Shown: positions 5,896-53,000 of the stretch, in pieces
Layout of the letters: the number at the start of each line of letters is the position of its first letter
Numbering within the stretch: the first letter of the stretch is position 1
Assembly: GCA_017499595.2 (NCBI GenBank)
Contig: CM039002.1
Span: 1,302,001 to 1,366,000 of the forward strand
Source: Psilocybe cubensis
Taxonomy: Eukaryota
Reading direction: 5' to 3'
DNA length: 64,000 nt
Program-made: the position numbers and the translations under genes
The notes under the pieces: generated by a model
What the model was told of the DNA's origin: nothing
The model's input: only the letters and a program-made list of their open reading frames with translations
The model's database searches: none

Positions 5896-7339
5896 CTAGT
5901 GGGTATGACTATGGCCATTCATATGGCCATTGAGGGGAGAATGAGCGTGGCCGGTACTAGCTCCATTGCCAACGGGAATTTCGCGGTGTTGATGAATGTC
6001 GTGGATGACCCCAGCAGCCCCTCTGATATAAGCACTTCCACGCCCGTAGTATCCACCTCCATAGATGTGTAGGTTTTCTGCTGCTGTGATAGACGCGCTG
6101 GCGCTTGCATGCCCGACAGCGCCAGTAACCAGGGATTCCATTTGGGCGGAAACATGCTTCATTGCGGATGCTGTAATGGCGGTGATAGCTGTCTCCATTG
6201 CGATGGTGAGCATTTTATGCATCTCAATGGTGACATGCTCCACGGTCGTTTCAGCGATGCTGACGAGGGTCTCCTGCATAACAGGATGTTTTGCGAAGAC
6301 GCTGAGGTCTGGCTCGGCAATGACCTTAAACTTCATCCAAGGAACTTCGCTAAGCATAAGCGATAGCTTTTTATTGAGTTCGATGATGATAAGTACGCCA
6401 TTGGAGTTACGAAGTCGAGTGCGAAGGTCCAGGCGGGCAATTCGGTATTCATCGCCTTTATGTATCCGGTATTTCGCGACTAAAAAGAATCCATCGAGAG
6501 AATATTCGAAGCAATGGGTACTAAATCCTGAGATGTCCCACTGGAGATGGCCGTCGAGAAACCCGATGATTGTGTCGAGGTCAATCTTAGAGTGGACGAC
6601 TGCACCGTCGAGTCGACGACATTGGGCGTGAAGGAATGTTCCTTTGAGCTCAAGCTTCGTGCAAGTTTCCTCAATTAACAGGTGGTGACTTTCACTTGAA
6701 GGGAGCATGTCAAAAAAACGTCTCGAAGAAGATATTAGACATACCGTCTGAATGAAGAGGAAGCAAAGTACGACGATTTAGAAGTCATGGTAGATGATGT
6801 TGAGACTGTGGTGGCGCTTGACATAGTCGATGCCGCAGAGAACATGTTGGACGAACTGGCGGTAGTGGCCGTCGAAGCAGAATTTGCGGATAACATGGCT
6901 TTGGCGACATCTTGCCCTGCAACTAATTTTATGGGTTCAGGCCGTTTGGGTCTATGTTATATATGATGAGATTCGTATAGCTCGGTTGAGAGTCAGAACG
7001 GAAAACACACGAAGACAGTGATAGGGGACGGGTGATGAGTTCCAAAGAACCGTCAACGTTTTTGATGTGGCGGTTTAGATCGAGATGGCTCTCGGTAGCC
7101 TTGTCGGATCCTCCTTTGGACCTTGCTGTGAGAATTCCCTCCGCATTGACTGAGAGACTCTCGGCAGCAGCACTGAAGCCATGGGATCCCCAGGTTAATT
7201 TGCCGTCAATAAAGCCCACATAATCGTCCAGCTTGATGGAAGAACTCGAGAAATTGTTGGTGTCGCGAATCTTGCACTTGGCGGAAAGAACACCGGATTT
7301 TGAGATCGAGAATTCCTTGCAAGAAGATGAAAGTGACAT
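5896..7339 (-). CDS. Double CVNH (cyanovirin-N homology) lectin-domain protein with Ser/Thr linker, helical C-terminal domain and His-rich tail; copy 1
   Basis: Two CVNH-like units (LSAKC..SSIKLDDYVGFIDGKLTW..GF..SHLDLNRHIKNVDGSL and LHAQCRRLDG..SKIDLDTIIGFLDGHLQW..LDLRTRLRNSNGVL). Introns at about 6952-7010 and 6696-6744 keep the frame open. No signal peptide. Confidence 0.85.
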
Positions 7340-9370: not shown

Positions 9371-10793
9371 TTAGGTGTGTTTCGCGATTTCGGCGTAGCT
9401 GTGGTGGGCGTGGCCGTCCGCATGATAGCTTCCATGGGATTCGTAGTGAGCCGAGTGGCCGTTCGATGTCGCGCTATATCCGTAACCCCCAGCTGCACTA
9501 TAGCGTCCACGACCATAGAGGTGAAGGGATTCGGCTGCGGTGATCGAAGCGCTGGCGCTTGCATGGCCCACAGCACCAGAGACCAAAGTTTCCATTTGAG
9601 CAGAGACGTGCTTCATGGCGGAAGCGGTGATAACAGAAATAGCAGACTCCATTGCAATCGTGAGCATTTTGTGCATCTCGATGGTGACATGTTCGACAGT
9701 GCTTTCTGCGATGCTGATAAGTGTTTCTTGCATGACGGGATGTTTAGCGAACACGCTAAGGTCAGGCTCGGCAATAACCTTGAACTTCATCCAAGGGACT
9801 TCGCTGAGCATGACGGAAAGCTTCTTGTTGAGCTCAATGATAATGAGGACGCCATTGGCATTGCGGAGTCTGGTTCGAAGATCAAGACGAGTGATTCGGT
9901 ATTCGTCGCCCGCGTGAGGTTTGTATTTAGCGACCAAGAAGAAACCGTCAAGGGAGTATTCGAAGCAGTGAGTGCTGAATCCAGAGATGTCCCATTGGAG
10001 ATGACCCTCAAAAAATCCGATGATCGTGTCGAGGTCAATCTGAGAGTGGACGAGGGTACCATCAAGACGGCGGCACTGAGCGTGAAGGAACGTGCCCTTG
10101 AGCTCAAGCTTCGTACAGGTATCTTCAATCAAAAGGTGCTGGCTCTCACTGCAAAATAAACAACACGTTAGCACAAATGGTTGACCGCGGTTCGGAAGTA
10201 AGTACCTTCGGAACTTTGTAGAAGAGAAAGCAGCGTATGAAGAAGAAGAAGATGACTTGGTCTCTTTGAATGATGTGGACACAGATGTCGAGGTTGAAGT
10301 TGTTGAGGCAGCAGAGAACATGCTGCTGGCACTGGCAGCGCTGGCGATGCTCGAAACACTAGCCTCAGAAATTCCCCTCAACAGCTCAGGTGCAACGAGA
10401 TGTTTGCCATTGGCATGCCTGTGCGAAGTTACATGTCAGAAAAAGTAAAACAAAATTGTGGGTAGACACTCACGCATCGACTGGGTGTGGGTTGGGAATA
10501 ACCGCCAAGAGACCGTCGTGATTTTGAAGATATATATTAAGGTCGAGTTTGCTTTCGACCGTCTTGCCGTTCACTTTGAATTTGGCAGACAGTACACCGT
10601 TGTGTACATGAACGTCCTCGGCGTGGTGACTGAAACCTCTGCCTCCCCACACAAGTTTTCCGTCAGTTACTCCGATGTAATCATTGAGCGAGATTGAAGA
10701 GTGGATAGTGCTCTTCTTGTCGGCCTTTTTGCAATCAGCAGAAAGAACACCCTTGGTGATGGTGACTTTGTCGCAAGTTTCGGAAAAGATCAT
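9371..10793 (-). CDS. Double CVNH lectin-domain protein; copy 2 (tandem paralog)
   Basis: Same architecture and comparable intron positions as copy 1. Probable 5'-UTR intron at 10795-10848 (GTGCGT..CTAG) and TATAAA near 10934-10939 on the minus strand. Confidence 0.85.
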
Positions 10794-12720
10794 ACTAGAG
10801 GGCAGACTTGAGTCTCGCTGGTAACAAGAAAAATAAAACAGAACGCACTTGAAGTATGAAGAAGAAAATTGAGTTTGTGGATTACTTGGAGGTTGAGGAT
10901 GATGATAATAATTTCAAGTCGAAAAGTGGAGACTTTATACATCTTGCCTTCCGTGCAAACCTTAGTATAGGACAGGAAATTACCCGAATTCTAGTTTCGG
11001 ATCCGACCATGTTTGCATCCGACAAAACGACACTGGATCGCAATCGACGAATGCCAGTAAGATCCATGGCCCGTTTTTGGATAGTACAGGGAGCTCGGTG
11101 CCAGTGCCATAAATAACAGATCCTTTAACCTTAAACCCGAAATTTACAATTGAATTGAAAAGAGTCAAAGGAGCTAGACATGACCGATCACTTCTTTAAG
11201 TTCTTAATGCCGTGGTTTGATTGACATTTGCCATTCCATAATGAGGGGCAGGCACTGCGTATCTCCGGACACAAGAAAGGCGTCCAGTTCGAGAGCGAGA
11301 AAGAGCCAACATAGATAATGCATCGGGTTCAGCATATCGACTTCACTAATTTCAATCTTTCGAGGCACTTCTGCAGCGAATTTAACCAAGATGTGGGCCT
11401 GGAGAAATTCGGTCCGTGATGGAAAATTGGAATCACAGGGATTCAATGAAGTGAGCCTGGTGTAAGTATTCGTTGAAGAACCAGACAGGAACTACTAGTG
11501 AATGTTGAATGATTAATGCCCACAGCTGTGAAACACCATCGGTCAGAAATGTTGGCCGGTTCGAGGAACACTCGAGTTGAGGACATTCGATACGGTGTGT
11601 GGTAAAGCTGTCACTTCCAGAGCAGGAAGAGAGCGGTGCAGGGGGCTCGCAGGAATCTGACAACGAGGTTACGAGACAGAAAAAGACATGCCGTGTGTTA
11701 GCCAATTCATTTTTGTTTGCAGCTGCTTGGACGTCTTTTATAATTGACCACGGCGGACTTGCACTTGCGCGGTCACACTGTACAGATTTTGTTGAACTTT
11801 GTCAATCACTTTCGTAATAATCCCTATCGAAAGACCTTTCATCATTCCGCATAGTAAAATGACCGGAACCAAACATGACAAGCTTTGGAACTATAATCAT
11901 TGAACAATAGACAGATCATGCAACTATGCTTGTTTACCATGATGATCCAGTGGCCAATAATGCTATGGCTCACCTATTCGGTTTCACTACTAACTATTCT
12001 GGTTAGTAGGGAAAAATTGTGCGACAGTGTTTGGCCAGTAGCGAAGCATCGAATAATTGCATTCTTACAGCGGACAGACTTTAGCGCTTCAAGCTTCAGC
12101 TCTTGTCCAACCATTGCGAAATATGGAAAGAGATGTTTTCACGCCCATGAAATAGTATATGGGTACTGGCCAACAACCTGTGCCTCAGGACTCAAGGCTC
12201 ACAGGCGTCTCCGCGAGGAGAAAAGTACTACAAAGAAAAGTCAAATTCCGGGATGCGCCACACTATTAATCGGGTGTAGCCCTGATGTGGCCAAGAAAAT
12301 GCAGAACTACATCTTCTTTACCACTGTTTTAGGCCATCAGGAATTGGTGAGCAGAATGTGACTAGACAATTGGCTGACCACTGCCTGATATTGAAAAAAA
12401 ATTGATGAAAGCAAATTAAATTATTAATGCTGGACCAGAGGACTCAGCAGCAGGGTATTTACATAAAGGCAAATGGGTGGGTCAGAAAACCCAATCTAAG
12501 ACAACGGAAACTTGATTTAATTGGAGTTGCACGAATCGAATGTCATCTTCAAAGCGTCATAGTCGACGAAGAGTATAAGGAAAAGTATTGCCTAATGATG
12601 GCGTGGGAACAACAAGGAGAAATAGGGTGGTAGTGACGTCATGTGTAGGTGCGGGTATTTGAGAGACAACACGTCGCGTCGATGCAGCCATCCTTGCTTT
12701 CCACCAATACAGAAATTAAG

Positions 12721-45291: not shown

Positions 45292-47237
45292 ATGGCTCCC
45301 TCCAAACCGGCCAAGAACATATCCCTCAGAGTACCGAGACACAATGCGCAGCGGATCAACGTCAAGCTGTCGGCGGAGGTGCAGAACCAGGCTAGAATGC
45401 AGCGGGTGCTGGTAGACGTCGTCCAGCCGAGCTCGAGGCTGTCGCAGGCCATTGTGTGTAAACTGAGTGTTATCTGTTTTTTTAAGGCGCTGAAATGGGT
45501 ATATCTAGGAAAGCGCATCGGATTGGAATTCATTGCTTATGACAGCTAGAGCCGAACGCGGACCACAATGGGACGTTGGCACACAACAGTCCGTCACCTT
45601 TGCTGCTAAATTGTTATAGTCATATTTCTAACAAACATCCAATATTCAGATTCCTAGTCGACAAATACTCTGATTTATACTATGACCCCACACCTCTGCT
45701 AGAGACAGTTAAAAAGTTGACAGAAGACGAGCACGGACCTGAATCAGGCTTGCAGAGCCAACAACAGCACCAGCACCAGCAACACCAGCATCAGCAGTCG
45801 CACCGCGACCACCGGGAGCACCAGCTTCCATCGCACCATCCTCCGCACGCGCCGTCCTCCTTCCAGCCCTCCCTCCCACCTCGGCACCAAACGCCGATGC
45901 GGGACAGAGACTTTGGGATGGCGCAGCACATGGCGCGGGACCAGTCCCCGCACCGACATCCAGGCGGCGGCGGTGGTGGTGGTGGTGGAGGAGGCCCCGG
46001 TGGCCCTGCGCAGGGGAACTACCCATACCCGCCAGGGATGAACATGCGTGGGCCGTCGAGCGGTGGGTTCCCTGGTGGAGGAGGACCATCGGGCGGCTCT
46101 CCGTTCAACCCAGCGGCGAATAGGTATATGGCGGCGGATCCTACGACACCAATACGCGGAGGAAGTGGGATGGGGATCTCGTCTCCTATAGGTGGTGATG
46201 GTATGCGACCTAACATGGGTGGTGGAGGAATGGGAGGAATGGGAGGAGGAATGGGACCTGCAGGGATGGGAGGGGGGATGGGAGGAGGAATGGGACCAAG
46301 TGGCATGGGAGGTATGGGAGGGGGCATGGGAGGAGTTGGCATGGGAGGTGGTGGTATGGGCGCAGGCGGCATGGGAGGCGGCGGTATGGGATCAGGCGGC
46401 ATGGGAGGCGGCGGGATGGGATCAGGGGGTATGGGTGGTGGGGGAATGGCAGGAGGTGGTATGGGCAACATGGGAGGAGGAATGGGCAACATCAGTGGAG
46501 GAGGCATGGGCAATATGGGGGTAGCAGGAATGGGCAACATGGGCGGAGCTGGAGGTATGGGCAATATCGGCGGCGGCGGCGGCGGGATGGGGAATATTTC
46601 AGGGGGCGGGATGGGTCCTATGGCCGGAGGGATGGGCAACATGTCAGGCGGAGGAATGGGCAACATCGGTCCCATGGGTGGAGGCGGCATGATGAATATG
46701 GGAGGTGGTATGCCCAATATGGCCGATCGAACAATGGCTGGTATGGGTGCAAACACCATGGGAGGAGGCGGCGGCATGGGTGGTATGGGCGGCATGGGCA
46801 TGGGCGGTATGGACGGCGCAGGGATGGGCAACATGGGCGGAGGTATGGGTGGCGGCATGGGCGGAAGCGGCGGCATGAACGCAGGCATGGGCACCGGTGT
46901 GGGTCCCATGGGCGTCGGCATGGGCGTCGGTATGAACTCGGGCATGGGAGGCATCAACTCGGGCATGGGCGGGATGGGCGGCGGGATGGGCGGGATGAAC
47001 GCTGGGATGGGCGGGATGAGTGCTGGGATGGGAGGCATGAACCCCGGGATGGGCGGCGGCGGGATGAACGCAGGCGTCGGCGGGATGGGCATGGGTGTCG
47101 GCGGGATGGGCATGGGCGGGATGGGAGGCGGGATGGGCATGGACCACGCGAACCCGATGGCTGCAGGCAACATGGGGATGGGCATGAACATGTCTCCGAG
47201 GGGGATGAACAGAGGCATGCCAGACGGTTACAACTGA
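45292..47237 (+). CDS. Protein with a ~100-aa N-terminal domain, a Q/H tract and a very long Gly/Met low-complexity domain
   Basis: Spliced N-terminus MAPSKPAKNISLRVP..SQAIV|SRAERGPQWDVGTQ|QFLVDKYSDLYYDPTPLLE. The open last exon to TGA 47237 is dominated by GGM/GMG repeats with varied codons. Confidence 0.8.
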
Positions 47238-47299
47238 TACATAATCGATATACCCTTCATTATTCCCCCTCTTTTTATTTTATTTTCGCTAATGTACTC

Positions 47300-50150
47300 A
47301 TGTATATCCTCTACTGCAGCTATCCTGTCTCTTTCATATCTCCTGATCTTCTTGTTTTTCTTTTCTTTTTACCACTTACCCAACCAAAAAAAAGTGTAAA
47401 CAAATCGCGCGCGCAACTTAAGTATCACACAGAGATGTAGAGGAGAAAAAAAGCTGCTCATGGGTGCGTTAAAAACCCACTGGGAAAAGTATAAAAACCC
47501 AATGGGAAAAGCTACCAAGGCAGGGACATGACAGACAAAAAAATCCACCGAGATCCTCAACATCAACAGAAGCAGAACTGAATCCCATTCCTCCCACTTC
47601 CATCCACACAAGGTCGGGGTGTCGAACGGAGGGTGGTAAATTGTCGAGTCGAGTCGAGTCGAGTAAGCGAGTTTCTTCGTCCTCCAAATCAACATGCCCA
47701 TCCATCCCGCCAATGCCAATGCCAATGCCAATGCCAAACCATCCCACTACAACCCAGCCCAACACCAAGGAAACAAAAAGTAAAAACAAAACAACAAACA
47801 ACGTACAAACTACCGAAAAAATCATCGTATATCTTGAGGAGATCCTTGGGTGCGTCAGCGTCAGCGTCAATTTTGCTTTTTTTTCTTCTCATTTCATTCT
47901 TTTTCTTTCGGGTTTTCTCGTAGATCTCTCAGTGTAGCACACAATGAACGATATTTCGAATAAAACTCAGCGGATTTGTCGCAGGTGTCAGCCCAGAAAA
48001 ATGACAACCCATCATCGCCTAGCCGCGCCGTAACAGCCAGAGAAGTCAAAGTCGAACACACGTCCTCGCCGTTCTCGGTGCCACGGCGCATCTACACGAG
48101 ACAGGTGCCGTAGGCTTGGGGATGGGGGATTTCATTCACTAAAAGCGCAGTTCGTCAGATTATATATGGGGTGAGGAGGATTGAAGCTGGAGTGTTACGC
48201 ACCGTATGTTGAAGAGCCTCTTGTATGGCTGTCGGATCGTCAAAAATTAAAAAGCAAAAAGCGAAAAAGAGAAAAAACTCAAAAAACGTCGAAGGAGGAT
48301 ACGCGGCACCAGAACCAGAACCAGCACCAGAAGAAGAACCAGAAAAAGAACCCAAAGGAACTCAGAGACTCAAGAGGTTGATAATGGAGTCGTTGCAGTC
48401 TTTTCTTTCTAGGCGTTGTCGTTGTCGTTGTCGTCGTTGTGGATGTCGTCGTCGTCGTCGTTGCGGATGATGCTCTCACTCATTCTCTCACTCATTCGCA
48501 ATCTCACTCACTCACTCACACCAAAGACTCATCGAACAAAAAAAAAACCTATATCCAAAAAAAGCAAAATCAGAATCCAGATTCCAAAACGAGGCCTCCT
48601 TAAAACAAAGAGAAAGCAAGAAAGCAAGAAAAAAGCGAGAAGGGAAGGAGGGAAGGAAGAAAGAAAGAAAGAAAGCCACGTACATGAAACGCTCACCGGT
48701 CTTGCGTGGCGTTTATCTTTTTCCTTTTTCGTTTTTCGTTTGTGTCTGCGTGTCTGCGTGGCAGTGATATGGCTCTATCATCAAAGGTAAAAAAGCGCGT
48801 ACACCAACGAGAACAAGAATGAGAAAGACGGAAGATGGAGGAGCGTACCTTTCGAGGCATATGTGCCAGCGGCTCCCCATGGGGAATATGTTCGTTTGTT
48901 TTTTTTTTGGTTTCGGTTTTTTTTGTTTCTGATTTTGGTTTTGGTTCCTCTTCGTCATCGTTTTTTTTTCCTTGTTTTTTTTGGCTTGTTGGTGTCGCGT
49001 TTCTCTTGATCTTGATCTTGCTTTGTTCCTTTTCGCTTCTTTTCGCTTCGTTTCGTTTCGTGGTGTGCTAAAATCTTGAAGGCAGTGATATGACTCTACA
49101 TTCCCATCGCATCGAAAGACATCAGCACAGCGACAACAAAACCTTCAAAAAAAGAAAAGAAAAGAAAAGAAAAGGAAAAAACAGAAAAACGAAAACGAAG
49201 AAAAACGAAGAAAAGCAGAAAAACAGAAAAGAGAAAAGGGAAAAAACGAAAAACGAAAAAAGAAGAAAAAACTCGCCATAGAGTCATATATGCCATCTGT
49301 CCTCCTCCGTTTCATTTTTCAGTTTTATTTTTTAATTCGTTTGTTTGTTTGTTTGCTTGCTTGCTTTATGTTTTCCTTTTGGTTTCTCGTTTCTCGTTTC
49401 TTTTTTCTTGATCTGTTTCGTTGTCGTCCTCGCTTTTTTTTCGTTTCGTTTTATCTTGATCCTCATATTCCGCCTTATCAATCCCCATCTCCTTTATTAT
49501 TATTATTTTTCTTGATGTTTCATCCGTTTATCTTTTATCTTGACGTTCACATTTTATATTTGCTGGGCTACAACACAAGAAACCCACGCGTCAGACACCC
49601 AGAAAACACAACACAAAGTAAGAAAAGGAAAGGACACATACAAAGAGAGAGAGAGGGCCATGTCAGTGGTATGTAGAAACGACGACGCACTGTATCATGA
49701 TGATCGATAGACGTCAGCCATCTAGTATGGACAAGGGCTAGGTAGCCAGCAGAAGACGTACCTTCCGTATTCTTATTCCGTATCATTCGTCTTCGATTGT
49801 GTGTATGTGGAACCCTTTCTCTTGTTTCTATTGAGCGATGTTGTCGTTATTATTATTATTATTATTGTTGTTGGCGATGTCGATGTCGATGTCGATGTCG
49901 AGGTCCATGGCGATGTCGAAGTCGAGTACGATATCGCCTTTACCCAAAACCCACCAACGCCCAAGGACACAAACAAGGCGACACCGAAATGCCACCCCGC
50001 CCACGCCCCAAAGCAAAGGCAAGCAAAGAGTAAAGTGAAAGGCCAACCCCCGCCCTACTAGGTACAAGGCGGGAGAAGAAAAGAAAAAGAAACGTAGAAC
50101 GTAGAAGGTGGAAGGTAGGAAGAAGGGGAAGAGTTGTGAAGAAAGAAGAA
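47300..50150 (-). ncRNA. Candidate long structured non-coding RNA (ends approximate)
   Basis: TATATAAA at 50169-50176 (-) followed by a CT-rich tract. Intron 49690-49761 (GTACGT..GCTGAC..CAG). Minus-strand G-U hairpin at 49938-50035, duplicated stems at 48759-48868 and 49081-49294, and no credible ORF. Confidence 0.55.
47640..49900. repeat. Dense microsatellites and A-rich/T-rich tracts
   Basis: (GAGTC)n near 47646-47664, (CAATGC)n near 47711-47736, (CGATGT)n near 49875-49900, (TAT)n near 49848-49866, and alternating A-rich and T-rich blocks at 48540-49560. Confidence 0.85.
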
Positions 50151-50168
50151 ATGACAGAGGAAGGGGGG

Positions 50169-50176
50169 TTTATATA
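50169..50176 (-). promoter_or_regulatory. TATA box
   Basis: TATATAAA on the minus strand, followed by a pyrimidine-rich initiation-like tract. Confidence 0.6.
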
Positions 50177-50704
50177 CACCTGTGGCTGACTGCTGATCGT
50201 AATCCTGTATATCTGTATATCTCATTTGGGAGGCTGAGGCTTGAGGCGTGAGGCGTGAGGCTGACTCGGTCGTGCATACACACACACAACATACACACAA
50301 AAGTTATTTTTGGAAATGTGTGGCACACAAACCGGCAAAGTCGGGTCCAAGACCAATGCCGTCGCGATGTCGGATTTCGAATGCGTCCGGGATTAGAACT
50401 GGTTAATGGAGGGGGGTAAAAATCATTGAAGTTTGACCTGTTGAACTCGCTCGTTCAAAATTGGAATAAAAGGACACTGTAACTTTCGGAGGGCGCGTAT
50501 GGCTTGATCTTGATCGCGGCACGACAGGATCGCAACGTGCTTCCATGTTCAAAGAATCAATCTAGGAAATACAGAAATAAATAAACAATATAAAATTTTG
50601 ATTAGCATTGTGTGGGGGTTTGATACAAGTGAGTGAGTAGGGGGGTTAGATGCACGAGTTAAATAGCCCGATTAGTAGGGAGGAAGAAATGGTAAGTTGT
50701 GTGT

Positions 50705-52106
50705 CTAGACGTGGGCGGGTTTTGCTTTTTCTTCGGTTTCAGGGTCGACCAGCATATGCCATAGTTCAGGCCCGTCGCGGATTAAAGCCTTGTTGGGGAC
50801 GGACGGACGGACGTCAGCTAGCGAATAAAAAAGGCCAACGAGGGTGGCTTACAATGACAACTTCAACAGCAATGAGAGCAATGATAATAAGTTCCATCGA
50901 GTGCGTTGATGACTGGCAAAATAAAGTTGTTCAAAGGCTGTCTTTACACCTAGAAAAAAGGTGTACACACCTCGGTCAGCAATTGACGAAGCATCGATTG
51001 AGCTTCAGCCGCATAAGTAATCTTGTCATTGAAGGATGCGGTTCGCGACGTGACTTCCAGCGCATCACTCAAAGACTTGAAGTGAGCTGTAAATTTCAAA
51101 ATAAGCATTCACATCCAAGAATAATCGTCCGTGCAAGCTCTACCTTCCAACTCGGGCTCCGACCAATAAAAGTCTGGTACTTCGGTAAAGTTCTCCCTGT
51201 TAAGATTCAAAAGCTGCCTAAACTTCATGAGTTCGCCGAGTTTCTTGATAAGCTGTGTGCGCCCCATGCCAGGTTTGCCTGTCTGCGCCAGAGTATGTGG
51301 AAGCAATGCCATAGAGCTCAGATACTGGTCCAGAGACACCTCCAGCGCTGAGAGCGCCGTCGAACGAGAAAGGGCCTGGGAGAACGCGTATCGGGCCAGA
51401 AGAGTCTCCTCCGGGAATGCCATGGGAGGAAGAACCTTGGGCAGCAATTCAGGCTCGTTAAGTGGTTCAGCCTGGCCGAGGATAATCAAGTCTCCCTGCA
51501 ATCTCGTTTTTCTAGTAAACACGTTCAGCACACATCCTGAAAATAACAGTACACAGACACGCACTCGATAGGATCCACCACGAATTCCAATTCCTCAGTT
51601 TCCGGTTCTCCCAAGGGAGAGACTTCCATGCCTCTAGCGCGGTCAATCACGTCGCTGACGAATGTCTTCGCCTCCGTCTCTCCAAGTCCCCAACACACAA
51701 TATTGCCGTTCGAAAATACAAAGATCTCGCCTTCTTTCCCTGCTTCGCCCCATTTCGGAATCCACCAAGACTCGTGCAGCGCCTGAGACCGAGCAGGCAG
51801 GTCGGGATGAGAACGGAGACGCGAGAGGATATATCGTTCCGCAGTGGCGAGAGTCGTGACGGGTTGTATGGTACCCCTCGTTGGTGTTGGATTTGAGCGA
51901 ATAGGCAACGACTCGGAAGCTGAACGGCGTAGAGGTGTTGTCGACTTTGGTTTAGCCTTACCGTCAGACAAAGGATTCGCGGACGCAGCAGCAGGCTTTT
52001 TCGCGGAATAGCATCGTGTAGAAACCCATTGAGGAGAGAAAATAGCTCTGGTCAAACTTTGACCAAATCTTGGAATACTTGTGGAAGAAAGCCTAAGAGA
52101 AGCCAT
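50705..52106 (-). CDS. DUF155 protein of the RMND1/Sif2/Rmd family, probably mitochondrial (Mrx10-like)
   Basis: Presequence-like N-terminus, GEIFVFSNGNIVCWG, AFSQALSRSTALSALE, PDFYWSEPELE, INDKITYA and a C-terminal TM segment MELIIIALIAVEV. Confidence 0.87.
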
Positions 52107-52289
52107 AACAAATTGGCCGGAACGAGATTGATTATATCATTACCCAGCCGAGCCGTGATGTCGTCTCACTCCGGCGACCCGTCTGCATTACACTACAAAA
52201 TGTAAGTAACTCAGACAATTCACACAAATAATAGGCGTCTCAAACCAAGTAAAATTTTTGTTCTACTCGATACATGTACGTAAAATTGG

Positions 52290-53000
52290 CCTAGTACATG
52301 GGAGACACCAGATGACCTGGGGTAATTGATTTGAATATTCTGGAATCCACACCATGATGGACAGTCGGCCCATACAACAATCCTCTGCTTTCACATCCCA
52401 GTCTCGACGCCGCAAAGGCCCGGACAAGAGTCGTCAACAACTGCAATGGCGCGGATATCCTTTCCGCCCACCAGGCTTTGCGCCCTTTCCCCCTTCCGAC
52501 ACTCGAGCACACTGAGGACCAAAGCCACAAGTGATACCTTGTATGCCCCGCTGGAGCACCACGTGAAAAACTAGATCCATTCATCAGACCAGGCATCGCA
52601 GGAATGATTAGAAAACCAACTAACCCCAGCCGAAACGCCTAAACAGGCGTCTCCATGAAGCCACTAGTCTCATCGAGACCAGCGGACACAGGATACCGAT
52701 AGTAACAAAAGACGATAGTAAAACGGGGACTAAATCCTTCAAAGGCGATATGAGTAAATACAATAAAAAGCAGTAAGACTGGAGATACGAACCAAAAATC
52801 CATCAACCAGCTAGGGATGCCGACAATTCCCTTAGCTTTACTGTGATGACATAGAAACGATTATCCGACACTAGGACTTCGACTCATAACGATCGGGAGA
52901 ACACCATACTGATACCTCTGTGAAAGAAAAGATCAGGAAAGCGATTAGACGATGTGGGGGATAACATACTCAGACATGGTGGGGTTTACGACCAAAGAAT
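52290..53000 (-). ncRNA. Candidate short spliced structured RNA or micropeptide gene (ends approximate)
   Basis: TATATAAA at 53021-53028 (-). Three canonical-looking introns (52918-52969, 52841-52909, 52737-52792). Only tiny ORFs from ATG 52977. G-U-containing hairpins at 52661-52685 and 52632-52653. Confidence 0.45.

Follow-up and report, generated by a model that had tools for sequence, protein, structure and literature searches.

A pair of C-loop-like hairpins, each interrupted by an intron, in a spliced and apparently non-coding RNA of Psilocybe cubensis

A duplicated stem motif on contig CM039002.1 of Psilocybe cubensis is a real feature that had been misread as a pair of long-looped hairpins; it consists of two C-loop-like hairpins, each split by an intron, within a spliced and apparently non-coding RNA made from the minus strand. 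All coordinates refer to the window, the whole stretch of 64,000 nucleotides that we analyzed. The sequence-only reading had placed copies of an 18-mer at 48760-48777 and 49081-49098, differing at one position, with partner arms at 48854-48868 and 49279-49294, and had drawn both on the minus strand as a 4-bp stem, a 1x3 internal loop and a 5-bp stem; the positions and the geometry were borne out for both copies. The stretches that it took for hairpin loops are instead minus-strand introns (48848-48775 and 49276-49096). They are mutually unrelated, as it had said (209 of 300 shuffles align equally well). Its picture of a duplex kept while its loop diverged has another explanation, the diverged part being an intron that is spliced out.

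The repeat itself holds up against chance. At up to three mismatches, the window holds just these two matches to the 18-mer (chance mean 0.05; none of 100 shuffles reaches two), and a complex 17/18 repeat appeared in 0 of 200 shuffles of 47715-50131. When the window was scanned for a 4-bp stem, a 1x3 loop with CAC and a 5-bp stem within 260 nt, six cases emerged, the sole sequence-sharing pair among them being the two hairpins described here. Each 18-mer consists of a 3' splice site (its last three letters) and the first 15 nt of the following exon. At 49662-49673 the 3' arm has a weak third match, which was set aside, as it has no partner and does not lie at an exon start. A dispersed transposon end would be expected in many genomic copies with element boundaries; the motif occurs twice in 64 kb, each time split by an intron.

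Evidence for splicing came from assembled contigs of four runs (X1-X4), compared over 47250-52300 after the splice signals of both enclosed stretches had been read from the sequence. X1 and X2 belong to one study, their RNA label being our guess, and X3 and X4 are DNA-like; in these contigs strand was taken from the splice signals, ends and level are not fixed, and rare forms are dropped. Contigs from X1 and X2 skip exactly 48775-48848 and 49096-49276, along with three more introns in the same transcript and four in the neighbouring DUF155 gene, whereas X3 and X4 have no joint and skip nothing. On the minus strand the two stretches carry the donors GTACGC at 48848 and GCGAGT at 49276, are 72-79% pyrimidine and end in TAG; the longer, intron 3 (previously the 180-nt 'loop'), is 79% pyrimidine with a branch-like CTGAT at 49125, and the shorter, intron 4, is the former 75-nt 'loop'. 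Both 'loops' are thus spliced out at an equivalent position, each intron interrupting its hairpin at the identical nucleotide, after the first base of the 3' arm. X1 and X2 together give five listed joints in the transcript plus a sixth that is inferred: their contig coordinates fall short by 135 nt across intron 5, where a repeat region was skipped and no joint is listed.

Table 1. Features of the spliced RNA and its two hairpins (window coordinates)
Feature	Positions	Strand	Details
TATATAAA box, then CT-rich tract	50169..50176	-	~45 nt upstream of inferred 5' end; sequence reading
Host RNA	47715..50131	-	1817 nt when spliced from 7 exons; ends weakly indicated by a single contig
Intron 1	49690..49761	-	72 nt, GT-AG; joint 49689/49762 in X1 and X2, absent from X3 and X4
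Intron 2	49568..49641	-	74 nt, GT-AG; joint 49567/49642
A-rich linker ahead of hairpin 2	49296..49567	-	57% A
Hairpin 2, 5' side, end of exon 3	49277..49295	-	arm 49295-49281, bulged U 49290
Hairpin 2, loop	49280-49278	-	3 nt; 49277 is the first 3'-arm base
Intron 3	49096..49276	-	181 nt, GC-AG; joint 49095/49277, ends CT..GC, X1 and X2 only
Hairpin 2, 3' arm, start of exon 4	49081..49095	-	C-loop-like long strand 49088-49084
A-rich linker between hairpins	48870..49079	-	55% A, A-runs up to 10
Hairpin 1, 5' side, end of exon 4	48849..48868	-	arm 48868-48854, bulged C 48863
Hairpin 1, loop	48853-48850	-	GAAA tetraloop; 48849 is the first 3'-arm base
Intron 4	48775..48848	-	74 nt, GT-AG; joint 48774/48849, ends CT..AC, X1 and X2 only
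Hairpin 1, 3' arm, start of exon 5	48760..48774	-	C-loop-like long strand 48767-48763
Intron 5, inferred	48549..48683	-	135 nt, GT-AG; fitting splice signals
Intron 6	48139..48202	-	64 nt, GT-AG; joint 48138/48203

The host transcript is apparently non-coding. Contig 4 of X2 measures 1817 nt, the predicted spliced length of 50131..47715, and the X1 contig extends beyond both inferred transcript ends; the TATATAAA box reads as a candidate promoter element. Among 26 AUGs in the 1817-nt RNA the longest ATG-initiated ORF has 65 codons, the ORFs are of low complexity, and a 118-codon ORF starting in the last exon found no relatives among 234 candidates; spliced, longer than 200 nt and without a credible ORF, the RNA is a candidate long non-coding RNA (lncRNA). 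Contig depths of 630 and 170 for the transcript, against 64 and 31 for the DUF155 gene, cannot rank the two genes by abundance. A long G-U-rich hairpin with a UUCG loop is predicted near the RNA's 5' end (49938-50035, minus strand), and an AUGAUG word with three CUGA words at 47925-48020 (minus strand), superficially like a box C/D snoRNA, has no Rfam match.

We considered several established RNA classes for the transcript. An H/ACA pocket would need more room than the 1x3 loop gives, and a snoRNA or snoRNA host was rejected, there being no Rfam match near the gathering score; over the window as a whole Rfam gave nothing at that score, only weak composition matches with E up to 5. A telomerase RNA was likewise rejected: CCCTAA, TAACCC and AACCCT are all absent from the transcript, the telomere repeat reported for Agrocybe chaxingu, which may not be that of this host, being TTAGGG (PMC11433599). 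Separately, the DUF155 3' region carries CTAACCCCCCTA at 50638-50649 (minus strand), which resembles a telomerase template for a six-G repeat; it was not seen in 11400-12600 of a Cortinariaceae-like DUF155 locus (L051, described below), and the likeness is probably due to chance.

Once the introns are removed, each predicted stem comprises about 15 pairs with arms of 17-21 nt. Of ten junctions tested, two gave junction-spanning hairpins, exactly the two in question, with z-scores of -3.9 (reached by 1 of 300 shuffles) and -3.8 (by 2 of 300), against -0.3 to +1.7 at the remaining eight. Pair probabilities for hairpin 1 are 0.95-1.0 in the mature RNA versus 0.0 in the precursor, and the four loop-proximal pairs of hairpin 2 behave in the same manner (0.99-1.0 versus 0.0), the next pair reaching 0.57. 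In unspliced RNA with at least 15 nt of flank the stem pairs have probabilities of 0.1 or less. The plus strand could be dismissed as the folded strand, with a pair probability of 0.0 and splice signals that lie on the minus strand. The hairpins are therefore predicted, by the folding model, to close only once spliced. In hairpin 2 a rival register competes with the lower stem, the one closing the 1x3 loop, and leaves it a probability of just 0.09; although non-canonical pairs earn nothing in the energy model, the modelled value stands against the docking-module reading proposed below.

The conserved internal loop resembles a C-loop. Its strands are UCACU*ACA in hairpin 1 and UCACU*AUA in hairpin 2, three bases facing one in both copies. 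We judged the fit by sequence, against Table 12 and the Figure 4 text of PMC4551918, where the JAR3D C-loop has C at position 2, positions 5 and 6 closing the loop, and 0-2 bulged bases between positions 6 and 7. Both copies follow the pattern of C at position 2, C or A at position 4 and a U5-A6 closing pair. Variants accepted there include UCAAU*AA and ACACU*AU (group IL_73276.5), and neither window string is among the C-loop variants given in those parts of the paper. The C-loop of PSTVd (loop 26), as described in excerpts of PMC9516175 and its preprint, is bounded on either side by an A-U pair, leaves a C free within an A-C-A strand identical to the short strand of hairpin 1, and is required for VIRP1 binding. 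From these comparisons we infer that the 1x3 loop would fold as a C-loop, a motif in which two non-Watson-Crick pairs (tWH and cWS) cross and build triads. Ribosomal C-loops are chiefly architectural in the sections consulted of PMC8570644, PMC2441787 and PMC6237812, so a C-loop alone is no proof of protein binding. The mature RNA contains no stable C-loop-type hairpins beyond these two, and the DUF155 mRNA contains none; 7 of 100 shuffles of the mature RNA yield at least two, which is not rare by chance. The presence of two C-loop-type hairpins is thus suggestive, not decisive.

Comparison of the two copies places the similarity in the stems, which are identical at 28 of 31 nt (none of 300 shuffles is as alike). 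Of the three differences, one is the lone bulged base and the other two are the partners in one pair, A-U in one copy and a C/C mismatch in hairpin 1; no compensatory change separates the copies, the lone double change disrupting the pair in hairpin 1. The linkers are marginally similar between copies (matched by 7 of 300 and 5 of 300 shuffles), and introns 3 and 4 differ in donor and branch region. The introns and linkers are of low complexity and prone to slippage, and fast neutral decay there could mimic selection on the arms. The contrast between arms and introns is weakened because low-complexity introns can decay fast.

The hairpin looks lineage-restricted. Upstream, on the minus strand, lies the DUF155 gene, whose best relative is a Psilocybe cyanescens protein (82%), followed by relatives from Galerina, Agrocybe and Flammula; on the other side is a Gly-Met-rich gene (45543-47237, plus strand) with no Pfam family, the 3' region of which may run into the 3' end of the non-coding RNA. 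That gene encodes a very long Gly-Gly-Met C-terminal tract and has four relatives for its non-repetitive part; in four agaric loci it is convergent with DUF155, and the tract is shorter there. An alignment of 17 named DUF155 proteins led to 68 loci, and none of them yielded a homologue of the hairpin, which the sequence-only reading had suggested seeking in other Agaricales. In L027, L030, L049 and L050, whose nearest named proteins include those of Flammula, Psilocybe and Agrocybe, the Gly-Met gene lies about 300-450 nt from DUF155, too close for the RNA to fit between them. Downstream of DUF155 in these four loci, sequences resembling the 3' arm were rejected as compensatory homologues, being the antisense of Gly-Gly-Met codons in the neighbouring gene. 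As a chance control, viral contigs gave 22 matches to the 3' arm, none of the 22 with a partner arm within 300 nt; metagenome contigs gave no match to the spliced hairpin core. A further 63 loci, many with little downstream DNA, yielded no motif match that held up.

The remaining locus, L051, is Cortinariaceae-like, its nearest protein being that of Phlegmacium glaucopus (338 of 367 residues). It has no hairpin copy and nothing credible in Rfam. Between 12640 and 13280 it has a TATA-like box, a CT-rich tract, intron-like segments and short ORFs in the place and orientation of the window RNA, a possible positional counterpart without the hairpin module. A non-coding element of 60-80 nt, about 90% identical, lies downstream of DUF155 in both (window 47454-47532, L051 13216-13274); within it the near-palindrome TTTCCCANTGGGTTTT, whose middle base varies, has two copies in the window and one in L051. 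The element has no Rfam match, was not found in the other loci, and might represent a small RNA or a site on the DNA that a protein binds. Elsewhere in the window, the neighbouring ORFs 5896-6777 and 9371-10435 (minus strand) each have a CVNH lectin domain.

We propose that the feature is a duplicated protein-docking hairpin, completed by splicing and carried on A-rich linkers of an lncRNA that serves as a scaffold or decoy, a proposal that we regard as evenly poised between right and wrong. A unit of 5' arm, intron and 3' arm would have been duplicated within the spliced, apparently non-coding RNA. In the precursor the arms are predicted to be engaged in other pairings; removal of the intron would let them close as a compact hairpin of about 15 pairs that marks the mature RNA. 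The retained 1x3 loop may then adopt the C-loop fold, in which the helix is over-twisted and a single base flips out, and could be the docking site for one protein; a pair of these sites, separated by about 250 nt and borne on A-rich linkers, would make a two-site scaffold or decoy. Support so far comes from one species and two copies. Of the functions offered by the sequence-only reading, a repeated protein-binding element fits best, with binding as the conjectural part, and its choice of the minus strand was right. A doubtful extension is that splicing acts as an assembly switch, two C-loop hairpins that exist in mature RNA only serving, together with their A-rich linkers, to titrate a translation or transport factor, or else to form an intron-split small-RNA precursor. 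The titration would be modelled on mammalian BC RNAs with eIF4B and PABP, amounting to a splicing-licensed protein decoy.

In the portions of PMC4210447 and PMC7072442 that we used, the C-loop of BC RNAs mediates eIF4B binding (PMC4210447) and competition for eIF4B, and these RNAs carry a poly(A) region and bind PABP. Like BC1 and BC200, the window RNA is non-coding and has an A-rich tract adjoining a C-loop-like hairpin, a likeness of analogy and not homology. BC RNAs are short and SINE-derived, are made by polymerase III in mammalian neurons and have a true poly(A) tract, whereas the window RNA is 1.8 kb long, spliced and fungal, with broken A-runs of at most 10; as a 1.8-kb spliced fungal transcript it was rejected as a BC1/BC200 member. 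Splicing builds none of the C-loop cases cited in the sources consulted, which come from rRNA, a bacterial mRNA, T-box leaders, viroids and mammalian BC RNAs.

Against the docking hairpin stands, in the first place, a neutral relic: a unit of exon end, intron and exon start duplicated in a young, functionless transcript, its complex arms decaying more slowly than the low-complexity introns and linkers. The lack of the RNA at four syntenic agaric loci favours this account, and the marginal linker similarity fits an old duplication of the unit. However, identity ends sharply at the stem ends, the complex parts of the introns (donor and branch region) have nothing in common, the arms flanking the intron have been retained together and still pair, and the differences affect the bulged base, one opposed pair and the hairpin's terminal loop; we consider a relic unlikely. 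Control of splicing strikes us as decidedly improbable. An exon-exon duplex in the precursor would bracket the intron and cover the 3' splice site, helping splicing or, when protein-bound, blocking it, for example at the GC-AG intron. Pairing between the precursor 3' splice site and the exon upstream is indeed possible (-17 and -24 kcal/mol for the two duplexes), the last G of the intron is able to replace the last G of the exon, and one intron is long with a GC donor. Yet the precursor stems, given their flanks, have the low probabilities reported above, both RNA-like runs join across both introns (though contigs drop rare forms), and splicing of a non-coding RNA has no obvious output to control. 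That the transcript is a short-peptide mRNA, with the hairpins as UTR or coding-region signals, is highly improbable: a 59-codon ORF from 49315 does pass through hairpin 2, but the hairpins lie in different frames, and the short, low-complexity ORFs and the orphan 118-codon frame also speak against coding.

A precursor for miRNA-like RNAs (milRNAs), the other function raised by the sequence-only reading, is weakened and still a rival. In vertebrates, miR-451 arises from a short hairpin processed by Argonaute. An intron-split precursor in the window would be a fungal counterpart of miR444 and miRtop14, perhaps likewise a short hairpin processed by Argonaute. In the sections of PMC11706861 available, the arms of those hairpins are separated by an intron in a non-coding transcript, and a non-spliceable miRtop14 gene gives almost no product; its authors knew of no other such case outside miR444, and fungi go unmentioned there. 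The inter-arm intron and the splicing dependence, here a matter of prediction, match this layout in both window hairpins, and two copies with near-identical arms resemble a miRNA family. In contrast, miR444 and miRtop14 are conserved across plant families and are proven miRNAs; the window RNA differs from them in its stem of about 15 pairs, present twice per transcript, and its C-loop-like bulge. Fungal milRNA hairpins (PMC9757828, PMC6145500) are also short and come from non-coding fungal transcripts, the shortness being stated in the consulted part of PMC9757828, which gives a milRNA size range of 19-25 nt. No sequence match to the window stems was found among those searched, and the window stems are shorter than a typical duplex and, with their asymmetric 1x3 loop, short for one of 19-25 nt. 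Six arm words searched in nine supplementary files of PMC9757828 gave two matches, both unrelated; the Coprinopsis set of PMC6145500 gave none among the rows shown, and Rfam offers no family match. An intron-split case was not found among the hairpins in the parts of PMC9757828 searched. A search for complementary sites, suggested earlier for the 18-mer, gave none at up to five mismatches elsewhere in the 64-kb window, a small fraction of the genome. A milRNA is less likely because the stems are short, and we would put an intron-split precursor among the distinctly improbable readings.

Neither this RNA nor an intron-split fungal hairpin was found in a literature search that covered titles and abstract openings, subscription papers and bioRxiv supplements lying outside it, and 12-mers from the arms matched five papers in full-text literature, all unrelated. 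Within the literature searched, neither a splicing-licensed decoy nor an intron-split small-RNA precursor was found described in fungi.

Elements that span exon junctions are missed or misread when structure screens work on folded genomic DNA. The locus described here is a clean example from a fungus, an intron at the same position dividing both copies of one hairpin. Should the arms yield small RNAs, intron-split miRNA precursors would extend beyond plants. If the loop is a protein-binding C-loop, it would link splicing to the assembly of an RNA-protein particle and would offer a small and directly testable way into a mushroom lncRNA, hardly any mechanisms having been assigned to that class.
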